Positions 40,346 to 54,136 of a stretch of DNA of 54,751 nt are shown piece after piece. How positions within the stretch are numbered: position 1 is the first letter of the stretch; each line of letters opens with the position of its first letter. The DNA comes from a virus (Duplodnaviria > Heunggongvirae > Uroviricota > Caudoviricetes): IMG/VR virus record IMGVR_UViG_2579779067_000001; one strand, written 5' to 3'. A program made the translations under genes and the position numbers. The notes under the pieces were generated by a model. That model saw only the letters and a list, made by a program, of their open reading frames with translations. It was not told the DNA's origin and did not search any database.

Positions 40346-41215
<870 letters not shown>

Positions 41216-41757
41216 CTAACCCTTTGAATTTACATAGCGCAAAAAGATACCTTTCCTCATAATGTGAGCTAATTTTATGTTTCGTTTGATGATCGGATCG
41301 GTCTCGAAACCCGTAGCCACGTCGTATGCAAGAACGTGCTACGACTGGCTGGTGAACTTCCGATAGTGCGAGTATTGAATGATTTCCAACTGTTATCGAT
41401 TTTGCGTATTTTTTGCATGAGAGGATTTTTACCTCCTCCCACCGATCCTCCATGGCTTTACGCCAGTGTCTCTGGTCTGCTATGTGCCAGGAGCGGACGC
41501 TAACCTGATTGACGGGAAATCATATTAAGTCTGCATAAAAAATTAGAATATCTTTAGTTACTATTACTAATGTGTGTATAACTTATGCCTAATTTATCGC
41601 TCCGGCTGAGGGAATCTTGCCTCCGCTGTCACTTTTAGGCATGATAACGACTATTTTTACAGTGGTTCCGAGTTATACTATCTAACAGATTACTTGAACC
41701 GAGTCCGTTTATCAGTATGGCGTTTTATATGCTCAGAGTTCATCCAAGGAGTGACTT

Positions 41758-42234
41758 TTGAAATTTGAACGAATCTATAAAAATATTACTGGCCTTAGCT
41801 GTCCCATATTCGGGATTCAGTGGAACGCGCCAATAATAGAAGCTGACGAAGCAAAGAAGATCGTCATTTTTCTTGAGGACAAGCGCGTTCTTTTCAATCC
41901 TGTCGACATGGAGGGGGCTAGTCATTGCACTTCGAGTGTTATCAACATTAGATCTGAATTGACTAAAGTCCTACAAGGTTTGCCGAGCGATTCACATTTA
42001 GCGAAACAATTAAGGAAAATGAGAAAAGCATGCCAAGAATTCTGTGACAGCGTTGGCTCCCCTAACTTTATCCAACTTGATCATCCTGTTCAAATATCCA
42101 TACTTGAGCGAGCCCTTTTTAAACTGCGACAAAAGTGTGGTAACTCTCTGGCAGAAATAGCGGTTACCTATGGTCTTGATGTTGATGACGGATTAGCCAT
42201 TATTATCCCTTTTAATAATCCCAGTAACATATAG
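41758..42234 (+). CDS. hypothetical protein
   Basis: 158-aa ORF; TTG start preceded by AAGGAG SD; AT-rich cargo block. Confidence 0.45.
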   Translation: MKFERIYKNITGLSCPIFGIQWNAPIIEADEAKKIVIFLEDKRVLFNPVDMEGASHCTSSVINIRSELTKVLQGLPSDSHLAKQLRKMRKACQEFCDSVGSPNFIQLDHPVQISILERALFKLRQKCGNSLAEIAVTYGLDVDDGLAIIIPFNNPSNI

Positions 42235-42601: not shown

Positions 42602-42647
42602 ATTCGTAATGCGAAGGTCGTAGGTTCGACTCCTATTATCGGCACCA
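42602..42647 (+). repeat. attR: 46-bp direct repeat of thrW 3' end
   Basis: identical to 1399-1444. Confidence 0.85.
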
Positions 42648-42811
42648 TCTCCACTTCTTCAAACATCCGTATTAATCCATAATCATACTGTTTTATAAAA
42701 GATTTTTTGTTCTTTTTGTCCATGTTAGTCCATAACCTTCCAGTGGAATCCAGTACTAAATGTGTATAGGATTATGTATATGTTCCTGTTCGATTATGGA
42801 ATTCTATACAC

Positions 42812-43978
42812 ATGCCCCTAAATGATATGCAGATTCGCCGTGCTAAACCTGAAGCTAAAGCCTATACACTTGGGGATGGGCAAGGGTTGTCTTTACTTGT
42901 AGAGCCAAATGGAAGTAAAAGTTGGCGATTTCGTTACCGCTATGCAGGTAAGCCTAAAATGATCTCGCTTGGTGTCTATCCAACGATCACACTTGCTGAA
43001 GCTCGTTCTCGCCGTGATGAGGCACGAAAAATAGTGGCCGAGGGAAAAAATCCTAGTGAGGTTCGAAAAGAACAAAAACTAGCATTAAGAATTCAATCTG
43101 AGAACGCATTCGAAAAGATTGCCAGAGAGTGGCATCAGATGAAATCGGCAAAATGGTCTGCTGGGTATGCCTCAGATATTATTGAAGCGTTCCAGAATGA
43201 TATTTTTCCGTATGTGGGGGCGAGGCCTGTAGGGGAAATTAAACCGCTAGAATTGCTAAATGTACTGCGTAAAATTGAGAAGCGTGGTGCATTGGAGAAA
43301 ATGCGCAAAGTGCGGCAACGTTGCTCAGAGGTTTTTCGATATGCCATTGCTACTGGAAGAGCAGAGTTTAATCCTGCGGCAGATCTGTCCAGTGCCCTTG
43401 AAGTTCATAAATCAAATCATTTTCCTTTCTTAAAATCAGATGAGATACCTGATTTTCTGCGTGCTTTAGATAGTTATACAGGAAGCCGACTTGTTCAGAT
43501 TGCCACAAAATTATTAATGGTTACGGGGGTTAGAACTATCGAGTTACGAGCAGCATTATGGCAAGAGTTTGATCTAGATAACGCTATTTGGGAAATTCCT
43601 GCTGAGAGAATGAAAATGCGTAGGCCGCACCTTGTCCCCTTATCGACGCAGGCGCTAGGCTTTCTTAATGAACTCAAATCTATGACAGGAAATTATCGTT
43701 ATGTTTTTCCTGGACGGAATGATCCAAATAAACCTATGAGTGAGGCAAGTGTTAATCAACTTATCAAACGAATAGGCTATGCTGGAAAACTTACAGGACA
43801 TGGGTTTAGGCATACATTATCAACAATTCTTCATGAAAATGGCTTTAATACCGCTTGGATTGAAATGCAACTTGCTCATGTAGATAAAAACTCTATAAGA
43901 GGAACATATAATCACGCCCAATATTTTGAAAAGCGAAAGGTGATGATGCAATGGTATTCAGATAATATTTTTAGTTAA
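42812..43978 (+). CDS. int: P4-type tyrosine integrase
   Basis: 388 aa; N-terminal GLSLLVEPNGSKSWRFRYRYAGK arm-binding pattern; C-terminal HGFRHT catalytic region. Confidence 0.9.
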   Translation: MPLNDMQIRRAKPEAKAYTLGDGQGLSLLVEPNGSKSWRFRYRYAGKPKMISLGVYPTITLAEARSRRDEARKIVAEGKNPSEVRKEQKLALRIQSENAFEKIAREWHQMKSAKWSAGYASDIIEAFQNDIFPYVGARPVGEIKPLELLNVLRKIEKRGALEKMRKVRQRCSEVFRYAIATGRAEFNPAADLSSALEVHKSNHFPFLKSDEIPDFLRALDSYTGSRLVQIATKLLMVTGVRTIELRAALWQEFDLDNAIWEIPAERMKMRRPHLVPLSTQALGFLNELKSMTGNYRYVFPGRNDPNKPMSEASVNQLIKRIGYAGKLTGHGFRHTLSTILHENGFNTAWIEMQLAHVDKNSIRGTYNHAQYFEKRKVMMQWYSDNIFS

Positions 43979-44024
43979 TATAATTGTTTTTTAGTTTTAG
44001 TATTTATTTTTTTATAAAAAAGAG

Positions 44025-44040
44025 AAGGGGCTAGCCCCTT
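44025..44040. terminator. bidirectional hairpin between convergent int and hotspot gene
   Basis: AAGGGGCTAGCCCCTT palindrome. Confidence 0.55.
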
Positions 44041-44049
44041 CGAAAATTA

Positions 44050-45645
44050 CTAATTATTGTCATCGTGAAATAAGTTTATGAAGACAATGTCATCCCTTTT
44101 CATATATTTATCTGCTATTGATTTTGTTTTTGTTATTAATTTTTTTGTGATATCTTCATTGTGATAACAATACATTATGTCTTCTAATTTTATACTGGGG
44201 TTAGACAGGTGATATTCATTTTTAGAGTAAACTCCTTTTCCGTTAATGGTGATTATAACAAGCACTATAAAATCACCTAGTTTAGTGGCGATAACTGCTA
44301 AACAACATGCATTTATTTCACTTGGAGGTGATTTTATTTTATTCTTAGATGTCAGTTTCATTGCTGGGGAATAATTTGGGTTACTTAGTAATTGCCCAAT
44401 TATGTTAGTATTATCACTATGTATACCCAATTTTGTAATAGTTGTCTTAACTTGCCCCTGAATACTTAATCGGTCAGATATAATAATAGCATTCTCTGTT
44501 GTATTTAATGCCTGAATACAGCTTTCAATTAATGAGGTGTCTTGTATTAGTTCTTTATTGGCATTTGTTATTAAAGTCATTGGGTTATGACTGTTAGAAA
44601 TATTTATTTCAAATTCCAGCATGTCCTTCTGTTCATAAATCCATCGCATGATGGTTAAATTATCTTTGATCTCAAATAGATTCAATATGTTGTCATATGA
44701 ATCAAATCGATATGTAAGGAGTCCTGTTTTAAGATAAATTAAAATGTCGAAATAAGAGGATTTTAATCTTGCTTTGATATGCTTATCTGGAGCATTGATG
44801 GATAGTGGACTAACATATAATTTACATTCGAGGCGAATGGTTTTTTTTGATGTCATGTTTGTTATTTTCAATATGGCATCTGTTTCAAAATTTTCAACCC
44901 CAAACGATAAATCGGCTTCAGAAAAACTCTTGTTCTCAAGAGGCATAGAGATATTAAATCGTTCGTCAAAGCACTTTATATTTCTAACTTTCGCTTTATT
45001 AACCCATCCAAGAGACGCATTGATCAGATTATCGTATTCAACTTCCGCTTTTGTCTGAAAAGTTAATTTATATCCTCCATTTTCATAACCTAAATTTTTT
45101 AAGTGATTTATTTTCTTTTCAGTATAAACTTCCATACCTTCATTTACGTATGATTCAATTGTAGACTTTAAATGTTCACCTGTTATTGCGTCTAATTTAT
45201 GGGTGCTGTCAAATGATACTGTAATGTTAATTTTGTTCAGTTTTTTGGGTTCTTTTAAAATAGAGTTTTCTCTGGCTCTTTGTAATGTTTTAAACATTAG
45301 ATTTTTATCAAAGTGTCTAACATAAACTGCTTGTGGAGTATTGCTTTTATTATACTCAATGAAAAAAAAGAAAGCGGGGAGCTTACTTCCGCATAAACGC
45401 ATCATATTTGATAAAGTAATTTGTACTTTTTTTGAAGTACCATCAGTTGCTTTGACTTGAATTTTACACTCGATAGGGGATGCACTTTTATCTATCATTG
45501 GGTGAGTTGAAAATTGTGTAGGGAAGTCAACAATGAAATCCCATCCAGCACTGTCTTTTAATGATGGGTTGTATATTAACCCAACAGATGCGCAAAGTTG
45601 CATAAATAATGCTTCGCCCATGCTTCCTAGATCCCGTTCTTGCAC
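44050..45645 (-). CDS. P4-hotspot protein of unknown function (possible N-terminal PD-(D/E)xK-like nuclease motif)
   Basis: 531 aa; very AT-rich; GTG start with AAGGTG SD; N-terminal GEALF...GWDFIVDF...ECKIQVK. Confidence 0.7.
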   Translation of the reverse strand: MQERDLGSMGEALFMQLCASVGLIYNPSLKDSAGWDFIVDFPTQFSTHPMIDKSASPIECKIQVKATDGTSKKVQITLSNMMRLCGSKLPAFFFFIEYNKSNTPQAVYVRHFDKNLMFKTLQRARENSILKEPKKLNKINITVSFDSTHKLDAITGEHLKSTIESYVNEGMEVYTEKKINHLKNLGYENGGYKLTFQTKAEVEYDNLINASLGWVNKAKVRNIKCFDERFNISMPLENKSFSEADLSFGVENFETDAILKITNMTSKKTIRLECKLYVSPLSINAPDKHIKARLKSSYFDILIYLKTGLLTYRFDSYDNILNLFEIKDNLTIMRWIYEQKDMLEFEINISNSHNPMTLITNANKELIQDTSLIESCIQALNTTENAIIISDRLSIQGQVKTTITKLGIHSDNTNIIGQLLSNPNYSPAMKLTSKNKIKSPPSEINACCLAVIATKLGDFIVLVIITINGKGVYSKNEYHLSNPSIKLEDIMYCYHNEDITKKLITKTKSIADKYMKRDDIVFINLFHDDNN

Positions 45646-46055
45646 ATTATCACCTTTCTAACAAATAATGTTCCATATCATCAGTTAACATCAAGTTTGA
45701 AAAACACAATTGATGCTGCGAACTAAGTTACAAGTATTCTAATAAAAAATTAAATTTGCAGGCAACAATGTATTGTAGTTGAACAAGATATGTAAAACAC
45801 GATGCAACATTGAAGTTATCCAATTCGAAACAAGTTTCCATTAACAGTGGCAGAATGCCTTTGCTGCAGTTGATTAAGATAACACCTTAGATGTCTTACG
45901 GAGCCAAGCCTTCTATGATCTATATCAGTTGTTTTCACACTATCTCCATTATGTAAAACATTATGTTTTATGACAGTTGAATGCGTTAGATTCCTTAGGC
46001 TCTTTTAGCTAAGGTATTTGGGGTTACTGGATTTCAATTTCCTTTTTAGCGCGCA

Positions 46056-46074
46056 GTGCTTTCCCCGCCTCGCC
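46056..46074 (-). other. P2/P4-type cos site (19-nt cohesive end sequence)
   Basis: GTGCTTTCCCCGCCTCGCC is the reverse complement of GGCGAGGCGGGGAAAGCAC (P2/P4 cos, memory). Confidence 0.5.
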
Positions 46075-46238: not shown

Positions 46239-46811
46239 TTACACAGACTGACGTGATGCCAGTTGCGCACTTTTACGCGAAAAAATCATGTTCTGCGCAG
46301 GGGTGAATTTTTCACGGCTGTCATCCACCGAAGCCGCGTCAGGCCTGAATCCGATGGTCGTTAAAATGTCGCTATCCTGTGCGGAATAATTAATTTTTTC
46401 CCCCTTCGCAAGCCAGGACAGAAGGGCTTCACGCAGGGCATCTGTGGCACGCTGTATGGCACAGTTTCGGGCAATGGCCGTCAGCTCACTGTAGCCCATC
46501 AGCTCCGGTGCCAGTGCCGCCGCCAGTGCTGTGCCGTGCTGCTGCATAAAATCATTCAGCCGGTCGCGGATGCTGATGTGCTGAACGGCTTCATGCGAAC
46601 GAATATAACGACCGGCGGCCTGATTCACCTGCCATTTTCTGACTTCGATAATATTGCGTAATTCGTCCAGGCGACTGACGTTTCTGCCTTCCCCGGACAG
46701 AAGCCGCAGATATTCCTGTTCGGCCGCAGCCAGCTCATTTTTGCGTTGCAGCCATGCTGCTTTGTTATTCTGACAGGTGTCAAAGGCCTGCTGTAAGGCT
46801 GTGCTTTCCAT
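46239..46811 (-). CDS. psu: polarity suppression protein Psu
   Basis: 190 aa, the size of P4 Psu; order sid-delta-psu. Confidence 0.8.
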   Translation of the reverse strand: MESTALQQAFDTCQNNKAAWLQRKNELAAAEQEYLRLLSGEGRNVSRLDELRNIIEVRKWQVNQAAGRYIRSHEAVQHISIRDRLNDFMQQHGTALAAALAPELMGYSELTAIARNCAIQRATDALREALLSWLAKGEKINYSAQDSDILTTIGFRPDAASVDDSREKFTPAQNMIFSRKSAQLASRQSV

Positions 46812-50729: not shown

Positions 50730-53063
50730 ATGAAAATGAACGTAACCGCCACCGTCAGCCATGCGCTCGGCCACTGGCCGCGTATTCTCCCGGCGCTGGG
50801 GATTCAGGTGCTGAAAAACCGTCATCAGCCCTGTCCGGTCTGTGGCGGGAGTGACCGCTTCCGTTTTGATGACAGGGAGGGGCGCGGCACCTGGTACTGC
50901 AATCAGTGTGGTGCCGGTGACGGCCTGAAACTGGTTGAAAAGGTGTTTGGTGTTTCCCCGTCCGACGCGGCCACAAAGGTGGCTGCCGTGACCGGCAGTC
51001 TGCCCCCGGCTGACCCGGCAGTGACGGCTGCCGCCGTTGCTGAAACAGACGCTGCCCGGAAGAACGCTGCCGCACTGGCACAAACCCTGATGGCAAAAAC
51101 CCGTCCCGGAACCGGTAACGCCTACCTGACCCGCAAGGGCTTTCCCGACCGGGAATGCCGGATGCTGACCGGCACACACAGAGCCGGTGGCGTGAGCTGG
51201 CGCGCCGGTGACCTTGTGGTGCCACTGTATGACGACAGCGGCGAACTGGTTAACCTTCAGTTAATCAGTGCTGACGGCCGTAAGCGCACCCTGAAAGGCG
51301 GACAGGTCAGGGGCACCTGTCACACCCTTTAAGGACAGAATCAGGCCGGAAAACGTCTGTGGATAGCGGAGGGATACGCGACCGCACTTACCGTGCATCA
51401 CCTGACCGGTGAAACGGTGATGGTGGCGCTTTCTTCCGTGAACCTCCTTTCTCTGGCCAGCCTTGCCCGGCAGAAGCATCCGGCCTGTCAGATTGTCCTT
51501 GCCGCTGACCGTGACCTCAGTGGTGACGGCCAGACAAAAGCCGCCGCAGCCGCAGATGCGTGTGAAGGTGTTGTTGCCCTGCCGCCGGTCTTCGGTGACT
51601 GGAATGATGCCTTCACGCAGTACGGCGGGGAAGCCACCCGTAAGGCCATTTACGATGCCATCTGGCCACCGGCTGAAAGCCCGTTCGACACCATGAGCGA
51701 AGCGGAGTTTTCCGCCATGAGTACCAGCGAAAAGGCCATGCGTATCTATGAGCATTACGGCGAGGCGCTCGCGGTCGATGCCAACGGCCAGCTTCTGTCC
51801 CGCTATGAAAATGGTGTCTGGAAGGTGCTGCCGCCACAGGACTTTGCCCGGGATGTGGCCGGGCTGTTTCAGCGGCTGCGTGCGCCGTTCTCCTCCGGGA
51901 AGGTGGCCTCCGTGGTGGACACCCTGAAGCTGATTATTCCGCAGCAGGAAGCCCCCTCCCGCCGCCTGATTGGCTTTCGTAACGGCGTGCTCGACACGCA
52001 GAACGGCACGTTCCACCCGCACAGTCCGTCACACTGGATGCGCACCCTGTGCGATGTGGATTTCACCCCGCCGGTGGACGGTGAAACGCTGGAGACCCAC
52101 GCCCCCGCGTTCTGGCGCTGGCTTGACCGTGCCGCCGGTGGCCGTGCGGAAAAACGCGACGTGATTCTGGCCGCACTGTTTATGGTGCTGGCAAACCGCT
52201 ACGACTGGCAGCTCTTTCTGGAGGTGACCGGTCCCGGCGGCAGCGGCAAAAGTATCATGGCCGAAATCGCCACCCTGCTGGCCGGGGAGGATAACGCCAC
52301 GTCGGCCACCATCGAGACGCTGGAATCCCCGCGTGAACGTGCCGCGTTAACTGGCTTCTCACTGATACGCCTGCCGGACCAGGAAAAATGGAGCGGCGAC
52401 GGTGCCGGACTCAAGGCCATCACCGGCGGTGATGCGGTGTCCGTTGACCCGAAATACCGGGATGCGTACTCCACGCATATCCCGGCGGTGATTCTGGCCG
52501 TGAACAATAACCCGATGCGCTTCACCGACCGCAGCGGCGGCGTGTCACGCCGGCGGGTGATTATTCACTTCCCGGAACAGATAGCCCCGCAGGAGCGCGA
52601 CCCGCAGCTTAAGGACAAAATCACCCGCGAGCTGGCGGTCATCGTGCGTCACCTGATGCAGAAGTTCAGCGACCCGATGCTCGCCCGGTCACTGCTTCAG
52701 TCCCAGCAGAACTCAGACGAGGCGCTGAACATCAAACGGGATGCCGACCCGACGTTTGATTTTATCGGCTATCTGGAAACCCTGCCGCAGACCAGCGGCA
52801 TGTATATGGGGAACGCCAGTATCATCCCGCGTAATTACCGTAAATACCTCTATCACGCCTATCTGGCCTACATGGAGGCAAACGGCTACCGGAATGTACT
52901 CAGTCTGAAAATGTTCGGGCTGGGGCTGCCGGTGATGCTGAAGGAATACGGACTGAATTACGAGAAGCGCCATACCAAACAGGGGATACAGACCAACCTG
53001 ACGCTGAAAGAGGAAAGCTACGGCGACTGGCTGCCAAAATGTGACGACCCTGCAACAGCCTGA
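50730..53063 (+). pseudogene. alpha: P4 alpha primase-helicase with in-frame TAA at 51330-51332
   Basis: track ORFs 50730..51332 and 51393..53063 share one frame; total 777 codons, the size of P4 alpha; N-terminal zinc finger CPVCGGSDRFRFDD...CNQCG. Confidence 0.75.
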
Positions 53064-53529: not shown

Positions 53530-53562
53530 CCTATTATCGCACCATTTAAATCAATAAGTTAC
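53530..53562 (+). repeat. degenerate copy of the thrW 3' end plus prophage-1 attL arm
   Basis: CCTATTATCG-CACCATTTAAATCAATAAGTTAC matches 1429-1462 with a 1-nt deletion. Confidence 0.75.
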
Positions 53563-53700
53563 CTCACATTTCAGTAAACTACGTTCTCCTCTTGTGCCTT
53601 TGATTTTGCTCGCGTGCGCGGTGAAATGCCTGACTGAAAGGTGAGCATATCGACGAACCATTTCGAGAGTTTCCCATCCGCTCATTTTTAAGTGCAAGCA
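53563..53700 (-). pseudogene. integrase 3' remnant
   Basis: minus-strand reading ...[14 protein letters not shown]...* parallels prophage-1 integrase ...[14 protein letters not shown]...; 28-bp identity to 1568-1595. Confidence 0.6.
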
Positions 53701-54136
53701 GGGAAACACCGGACTAAACCAATCAGCTGTTCGAAAATGGCAAGCGGATTAATATGCCATGGCGGCTTTGAGCCGCACGTATGGGGTGTGGCAAGCCTGA
53801 TGGATGTTGCTGTGCTTGTGGTGGCGTCTTTGCTGGTCTGGTTGTTGGTTAATCGCGAAAATCATTATGCCAGAGGAATACCACAGGACGTTCAGGTTTT
53901 GCATAAAAAAGCCCACCATTAAGGTGGGCAAAAGGAATGATTTATATTCTCTGAGAGAAACATTACATTTCTCCTTGTCACTTCTAACATAAAAATATGG
54001 AGAAATAATGGAGCTTATATTAATTGGCGATTAGGTAACCATGTGGTTATACAAAACAATACAGTTCTTTACATTTGCCTTGTTTTATGAATACTCCTGA
54101 AGAGGTGTACAACATAATTAAACAAACAGGGTAAAT

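Follow-up and report, generated by a model that had tools for sequence, protein, structure and literature searches.

The gene analyzed here lies at positions 44050–45645 on the minus strand of IMG/VR virus record IMGVR_UViG_2579779067_000001, a stretch of 54,751 nucleotides from a member of the Caudoviricetes that is referred to below as the window. It encodes a protein of 531 amino acids and forms the single-gene cargo of the hotspot of a P4-like satellite. The interpretation favored here, to which a probability of roughly 0.55 is given, is that the gene specifies a self-contained, single-protein anti-phage nuclease of the abortive-infection type. That interpretation draws on the fold and catalytic motif of the N-terminal domain, on a C-terminal part without recognizable relatives, and on a large family whose members stand alone in their genomic surroundings.

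The N-Terminal Nuclease Domain

The putative nuclease domain comprises residues 1–113 (45307–45645, minus strand) and is marked by E11, D31, G34, D36, E/D40, Q63, and K65. Conservation was assessed in alignment A3, which contains 88 homologs from many phyla and is the basis of all counts out of 88 given below. D31, G34, D36, Q63, and K65 are invariant, E11 is present in 87/88 sequences, and position 40 is acidic (E or D) throughout. A previous interpretation made without database searches, the sequence-only reading, had noticed a motif in this region reminiscent of a PD-(D/E)xK core and ending in “ECKIQVK”. The nuclease fold and motif were retained in the present analysis, but the active pair was reassigned to Q63-x-K65 from E59-x-K61, the latter residues being found in only 63 and 65 of the 88 homologs, respectively. 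The reassignment follows from agreement with the HMM (hidden Markov model) signature of DUF4365, DxGxD...QxK (PMC11297309), and with the D/Q/K triad of the SPARDA nuclease DREN. In NbaSPARDA the catalytic residues are D41, Q60, and K62; the metal ion is bound by the first two, and activity is lost when they are mutated. The counterparts of the catalytic Q and K in TmuRE are Q62 and K64. In the 531-residue family the spacing is D-x-x-G-x-D, one residue more than in the published signature.

The fold test returned a PD-(D/E)xK architecture with Hjc-like topology, for which the closest solved neighbor was I-Ssp6803I (a chain of 148 residues); Hjc, the N-terminal domain of Eco15I, VRR-NUC, and subunits of tRNA-splicing endonuclease were further neighbors. 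The motif of Hjc- and I-Ssp6803I-type enzymes is E-x-K, not Q-x-K. It should be noted that the authors of the NbaSPARDA structure also named I-Ssp6803I as the closest structural relative of DREN. When homologs were scanned singly, PF14280 (DUF4365), the gathering threshold of which is 24.3 bits, was matched weakly by 9/20 and by 50/88 sequences, with a best E-value of 2e-5, and several homologs bear the UniRef name “DUF4365 domain-containing”. Taken at the level of sequence and predicted structure, these observations support the assignment of the N-terminal domain to the DREN/DUF4365 type of PD-(D/E)xK nucleases with the triad D36/Q63/K65, so that the protein is presumed to act as a nuclease.

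Residues 114–531

Downstream of the nuclease domain, three regions can be distinguished. Residues 114–185 (45091–45306, minus strand) are predicted from the secondary structure of AlphaFold2 (AF2) models, from conservation, and from an isoelectric point of 9.5 to form a basic, mostly helical linker, in which L121 is invariant and Y174 and K178 are nearly so in the 88-sequence alignment. A β-rich, moderately conserved middle region follows at residues 186–320 (44686–45090, minus strand), as delineated by alignments A1 and A3 and the AF2 models; G186 and R229 are invariant here, G213 and F230 near-invariant, and the motifs GYENG, SLG, RFG, and YxSP recur. The final region, residues 321–531 (44053–44685, minus strand), is hypervariable and is proposed to be a sensor or specificity module. 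Mean pairwise identity falls steadily along the protein, from 44% in the nuclease through 29% in the linker and 27% in the middle region to 17% in the last ~210 residues.

An AF2 model of residues 114–531 built separately reached a predicted local distance difference test score (pLDDT) of 84 and a predicted template modeling score (pTM) of 0.69. A Foldseek comparison of this model with all chains of the Protein Data Bank (PDB) up to April 2026 gave none at E ≤ 0.001, with TM-scores (template modeling scores) of at most 0.11, and a scan of 19 C-terminal sequences revealed no recurrent Pfam family. APAZ was not detected C-terminal to the nuclease, nor did an APAZ chain appear among the Foldseek matches listed. 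Outside the nuclease core, the protein had been described previously as unfamiliar. For residues 114–531 that description holds and can be sharpened, as they lack a counterpart among known domains and solved structures. The protein is nevertheless on record in the literature and is a weak member of DUF4365. From the order of secondary-structure elements in the model, we infer an RNase H-like subdomain at roughly residues 291–392, part of which probably lies within the hypervariable region. Since the 88-sequence alignment has no conserved acidic residues in this stretch, such a subdomain would be catalytically dead.

Family Size, Distribution, and Genomic Context

A full HMMER scan of 1.84 billion representative proteins returned 2266 matches at E ≤ 0.001, of which 1374 also passed E ≤ 1e-30; these 1374 are clusters at 50% identity and give a lower bound for the family. 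The best 150 matches were nearly all 500–545 residues in length and aligned end to end, and a length of about 510–540 residues is typical of the whole family. A second protein search with profile A1 gave the same 24 proteins and added none. Matches in genomes were distributed among the Gamma-, Beta-, and Alphaproteobacteria, Desulfobacterota, Cyanobacteria, Planctomycetota, Bacteroidota, and Myxococcota. Among viral sequences, relatives were found on nine IMG/VR contigs, and the 50,697 phage records searched, P4 included, contained no match to the 531-residue gene. In Escherichia coli the gene is present in 9 of 5426 complete genomes, each time as a single chromosomal copy of at least 99.7% identity. 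One contig labeled “MAG: Lachnospiraceae bacterium” (JABUSY010000043.1, 3.5 kb) carries a protein 100% identical to that of E. coli and is almost certainly a mis-binned Enterobacterales contig, not a Firmicutes homolog. In E. coli G3/10 (NZ_CP060075.1, 3904435–3909733) the gene is split by IS5 and annotated as two hypothetical proteins, and truncated copies occur in several other genomes (for example at loci L013, L016, L060, L061, and L062). Together, the split and truncated copies suggest that the gene is dispensable or costly.

The surroundings of the gene were compared by clustering the open reading frames (ORFs) within 5 kb at ~76 loci. No gene family was common to more than five of them, which indicates that the protein is a solo unit; the largest neighbor clusters consisted of a frameshifted fragment of the family gene and of syntenic housekeeping genes in closely related Acinetobacter strains. 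Neither Argonaute nor a methyltransferase nor an antitoxin was a conserved neighbor at these loci, and the annotated contexts examined contained no PIWI-family gene. Orthologs of 70% identity hold the psu-int slot of other P4-like elements, the locus defined as the P4 defense hotspot by Rousset et al. 2022 (PMC9122126), and a homolog of 38% identity adjoins a portal gene, the position of the P2 hotspot. The Rouxiella copy is located in a defense island beside proA, together with an OLD-like ATPase, AbiTii, and IS110, and the Desulfobulbus copy lies within an integrase-bearing element.

Several lineage-specific arrangements were also observed. At three loci with 70%-identical orthologs, which are degraded P4-like remnants (L084–L086), fragments of a Type I restriction-modification subunit (EcoR124_C) and of a GmrSD_N protein come after psu, so that, judged from these fragments, several defense genes appear to be stacked at one island. 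Four loci (L045 and three others) possess a small XRE-type helix-turn-helix-like ORF on the same strand ~70–95 bp upstream, which may be a lineage-specific regulator and is absent at the E. coli locus. At four alphaproteobacterial loci (L069 and three others), an ORF of ~330 residues shares a few bases with the beginning of the family member and provides the sole hint of a lineage-specific partner.

Prior Record and Comparison with Named Systems

The protein has already been catalogued. In Table S1B of Rousset et al. 2022 (PMC9122126) it is P4 hotspot system #15, “DUF4365/PDDEXK_5”, found at 82 of 5,251 P4 loci and accompanied by the comment “N-terminal nuclease domain”; the sequence of system #15, to the extent that it is displayed there, is identical to residues 9 onward of the window ORF. 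Both the sighting and its interpretation were thus preceded by the 2022 entry. The novelty implied by the sequence-only reading is reduced to that degree, the protein being a weak member of the known DUF4365 family, and the present analysis adds the DREN-type assignment with its D/Q/K triad, the demonstration of a large family of uniform architecture that is free of Argonaute and of partners, and the finding that the C-terminal three quarters have no relative in domain or structure collections.

A close parallel is SPARDA (NbaSPARDA, TmuRE-Ago). The triad D36/Q63/K65 corresponds to D41/Q60/K62 in the Nba protein and, for its last two members, to Q62/K64 in the Tmu protein, I-Ssp6803I is the closest solved neighbor of both nucleases, and in both cases an N-terminal nuclease and a linker precede a large regulatory part. 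The two differ in several respects: a short Argonaute is adjacent at none of the ~76 loci, APAZ was not detected, and the C-terminal 418 residues constitute an unrelated, unannotated module. Since the Argonaute and APAZ features were both sought and neither was found, the protein is not SPARDA, and there is no evidence for a guide-RNA mechanism.

Two defense systems with a DUF4365 domain were compared by description. Aernus (5A with the MtlR-like 5B) is a validated P4 hotspot system with strong protection against Drexlerviridae, according to a 2026 bioRxiv preprint (10.64898/2026.02.27.708500). Like the present protein, Aernus 5A is P4 cargo with a DUF4365 PD-(D/E)xK domain whose top structural matches are Holliday-junction resolvases, and it is also reported alone near integrases. 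It differs in combining DUF4365 with AbiGii (PF16873) and in having an MtlR-like partner. No AbiGii signal, nucleotidyltransferase fold, or MtlR neighbor was found for the 531-residue protein, so identity with Aernus 5A leans negative. Divona, a validated single-gene cassette of the Vibrio cholerae chromosomal integron, was described by Darracq, Littner et al. (10.1101/2024.07.02.601686). It, too, is a single gene, in which a DUF4365 nuclease at the N-terminus is followed by another domain, and homologs in E. coli are reported to lie no more than 20 kb from integrases. The second domain of Divona is described, by authors who used HHpred, as crr6 (PF08847), to which the scanned members of the 531-residue family gave no match. 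The family and Vibrionaceae-subfamily profiles and the genome scan found no V. cholerae protein, and the same profiles recovered members from V. splendidus, V. fluvialis, Photobacterium, Aeromonas, and Shewanella; it is doubtful that Divona belongs to the same family.

Several further proteins were compared. The Photorhabdus toxin EAT16, which is associated with an extracellular contractile injection system (eCIS), joins an N-terminal DUF4365 domain bearing DxGxD...QxK to a second domain, and its cytotoxicity in E. coli is lost in DxGxD...QxK mutants (PMC11297309). It is a secreted toxin tied to a contractile injection system, not hotspot cargo. I-Ssp6803I and the archaeal Hjc resolvases are single domains of 119–148 residues with 9–15% identity and a different biology. 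The “DUF4365” protein #113 of the P2 hotspot proved unrelated to the family by hhalign. PADLOC model PDC-M02A matched 13/88 members at E ≥ 1.4e-5, the two matches examined being confined to the nuclease domain (residues ~6–100), and the PDC-M02 partner genes are not conserved. In general, DUF4365/DREN has the look of a modular effector, recruited repeatedly and with different partners in the hotspots of mobile elements.

Proposed Mechanism and Alternatives

Building on the location, fold, catalytic motif, solo status, family size, and conservation gradient described above, a monomer-off/oligomer-on mechanism may be proposed. In SPARDA, DREN alone is monomeric and inactive; recognition of a target by Argonaute leads to a filament in which four DREN domains are brought together in a D2 tetramer, and DNA is then degraded indiscriminately. 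By analogy, the DREN domain of the 531-residue protein would be silent as a monomer, with D36 and Q63 holding the metal ion and K65 completing the site. The C-terminal ~400 residues would take the place of the APAZ-Argonaute sensor. Within them, the hypervariable last ~200 residues might recognize a cue of infection, either a phage protein or a nucleic-acid structure, and the conserved middle part could pass on the signal or form the scaffold for assembly. Recognition would induce oligomerization, most likely to a tetramer, and the clustered copies would become an indiscriminate DNase, possibly also an RNase, degrading phage and host DNA until phage replication stops. The conservation gradient, with its constant effector and variable tail, is in keeping with co-evolution between a sensor and its phage targets. 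A defense phenotype would also accord with the 2026 preprint cited above, in which six of eight randomly chosen unannotated P4 hotspot loci, Aernus among them, protect against phages.

Several points weigh against this interpretation. The window protein itself reaches no threshold match in Pfam, PADLOC, NCBIfam, or PHROGs, and PF14280 is not matched even at E ≤ 10; the tie to DUF4365 consists of weak matches of homologs together with the motif and the fold. When family profiles were searched against the PDB sequences, nothing relevant and no match to the solved SPARDA chains was obtained. No sign of oligomerization or of a trigger is present in the data. The rarity of the gene in E. coli, its interruption by IS5, and the truncations fit a costly, dispensable gene and are no proof of defense. 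Regarding experiment, the sequence and domain name are absent from the tested systems of Rousset et al. (Table S2), the DNA of the gene was not found in those supplements of the 2026 preprint that were available, and a literature search found no report of an experimental test of this protein. Finally, the hypervariable C-terminus would also fit the DNA-specificity domain of a restriction-like enzyme.

The last point leads to the main, though unlikely, competitor, a solitary restriction-type endonuclease, either Type IV and modification-dependent or site-specific, whose variable C-terminus would read DNA or a modified base, with no triggered assembly or collateral damage. The novel C-terminal fold could indeed be a new reader domain; however, no known modified-base or DNA-reader fold was detected in the structure and domain searches, the contexts examined contain no methyltransferase, a feature of Types I–III, and the characterized DUF4365 nucleases compared here are all non-specific. 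Competition among mobile elements, in the form of an anti-plasmid, anti-prophage, or anti-satellite nuclease or of a stabilizing addiction-type toxin, is considered rather improbable. The gene is invariably found on integrated mobile elements or islands, Rousset et al. 2022 make the case that hotspot cargo is involved in inter-viral competition, and one SPARDA study describes SPARDA in anti-plasmid defense. Against this reading stands the lack of an adjacent antitoxin-like small ORF and of any known RNA element in the conserved leader, and element competition overlaps the abortive-infection reading, the molecular mechanism being the same and only the preferred target differing. 

A role in the P4 life cycle or in DNA processing, a free-standing homing endonuclease, or a gene whose function has been lost is very improbable and largely refuted by the distribution of the gene. 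Such roles are brought to mind by the resolvase Hjc and the homing endonuclease I-Ssp6803I, structural neighbors that act in recombination or homing, and loss of function by the degeneration of the satellite, whose alpha gene carries a nonsense codon. The gene is nevertheless missing from P4 itself and from all of the phage records, and only 9 of the 2381 E. coli genomes that match the int-psu query region carry it, so it is not a backbone function. A homing role is further opposed by size, the protein far exceeding the homing endonucleases of this fold, and loss of function by an intact ORF that is nearly identical in the nine genomes. The uniform architecture across phyla in ~1400 clusters points to purifying selection on the whole 520 residues.

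Beyond the single-protein abortive-infection nuclease, a broader proposal can be put forward tentatively, at well under even odds: that the family as a whole is a widespread defense whose DREN collateral nuclease works apart from Argonaute, being joined instead to a new ~400-residue sensor and scaffold with a hypervariable C-terminus and an RNase H/PIWI-like subdomain that is catalytically dead.

Start Codon, Leader, and Terminator

The ORF with its stop codon occupies 1596 nt, labeled as a hypothetical protein in RefSeq; its strand, extent, and length, as given by the sequence-only reading, agree with the ORF list, which places the start at a GTG codon. At the base composition of the ORF, ~8% of random codons would be stops, and 531 open codons would arise by chance with a calculated probability of ~1e-19. 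This value, together with full-length homologs in many phyla, shows that the ORF is not a chance feature. Its very AT-rich character was likewise evident, the GC fraction being 0.29–0.31 over the ORF versus 0.52–0.65 in the P4 backbone. The GTG start is supported both by AAAGGTGAT(A/G)ATGTG, which is invariant in orthologs with 70% protein identity, and by residues R4-D5-L6-G7, which are kept across the family and precede the first ATG (M9).

Upstream of the gene, 410 bp separate the ORF from cos. A leader at 45646–45830 (minus strand) is conserved with the 70%-identical orthologs and thus travels with the gene; it contains a conserved Shine-Dalgarno sequence, AAAGGTGA, at 45650–45657 (minus strand), and an Rfam scan of the leader gave no significant match. 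Two candidate sigma-70 promoters on the same strand, at 45796–45767 and 45765–45736, were identified by consensus match. At the other end, a hairpin with a 7-bp GC-rich stem (GAAGGGGC-TAGC-CCCTTC, 44024–44041) is followed on the minus strand by a T-run and is therefore taken as the intrinsic terminator of the gene (44014–44041, minus strand), in agreement with the palindromic terminator previously proposed between the gene and int.

The P4-Like Satellite and Its Neighbors

The left border of the hotspot is the P4-type tyrosine integrase gene int (42812–43978), which lies on the plus strand and is convergent with the minus-strand gene. The right border is the P4/P2-type cos core GTGCTTTCCCCGCCTCGCC at 46056–46074, recognized by comparison with Table S2 of Rousset et al., whose P4 sequences contain the core in reverse complement, GGCGAGGCGGGGAAAGCAC. 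Both the end of int and the position of cos had been predicted correctly from the letters of the DNA. Beyond cos follow psu (46239–46811, minus strand), which encodes the polarity suppression and capsid decoration protein of the P4 backbone, then delta and sid on the same strand, and the remaining backbone. The earlier placement of the gene in the variable region of P4 is also upheld, as the same int-psu slot holds different cargo in other E. coli strains, including a HEPN protein, an ORC/CDC6 ATPase, and others.

The satellite was integrated in tandem at a tRNA-Thr(CGT) gene (1369–1444). Its attL (42602–42648, plus strand) reproduces 47 nt at the 3′ end of that tRNA gene (1399–1445) without a mismatch, and a 24-nt att core repeat marks its right end (53539–53562, plus strand). 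These repeats delimit a ~41-kb prophage (1445–42601) and, behind it, the P4-like element of ~10.9 kb; in strain 4750, it is the satellite that directly abuts the tRNA gene. The alpha primase-helicase gene (50730–53063) has an in-frame TAA at 51330–51332 where strain 4750 has GAA. The frame resumes unchanged after the stop, giving pieces of 200 and 556 amino acids, and on this evidence the satellite copy is probably replication-defective, the hotspot gene being intact. Past the right end of the satellite, in the region 53551–53709, an 85-nt stretch is 74% identical to a stretch past tRNA-Thr (1532–1616), and the end of the short ORF there resembles a tyrosine recombinase; it is probably the remnant of an older element integrated at the same site. 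A pseudogene, “Arm DNA-binding domain, incomplete”, occupies the equivalent place in strain 4750.

Within the prophage, the right end (40346–42234) adjoins the tail-fiber assembly genes. Annotation of the matching E. coli genomes places here a LEM-3-like GIY-YIG domain protein (40346–41170, minus strand) and a DUF6650 protein (41758–42234, plus strand), which may be moron or defense cargo of the prophage. At 8839–8961, six direct repeats spaced 15 nt apart, with a consensus of about TCAAAATCTGACCCG, look like iterons and possibly mark an origin or a regulator-binding region.

Biological Significance

Work on DREN has to date concentrated on its role as effector arm in the Argonaute-containing SPARDA systems, where it serves collateral cleavage and nucleic-acid detection. 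The family described here would show the same nuclease wired to a different, uncharacterized sensor in one polypeptide. Its E. coli member fills in one of the commoner unannotated cargoes of the P4 hotspot, ranked 15th in the 2022 survey, and is compact (1.6 kb with a leader of ~200 bp) and experimentally tractable. The protein could reveal how DREN-type nucleases stay silent and then fire without guide RNA, and what the “dark” C-terminal module recognizes. If the broader proposal is true, activation of DREN gated by a filament or tetramer would be a general effector logic that extends beyond guide-RNA systems, and the C-terminal module might sense nucleic-acid structure without a guide.

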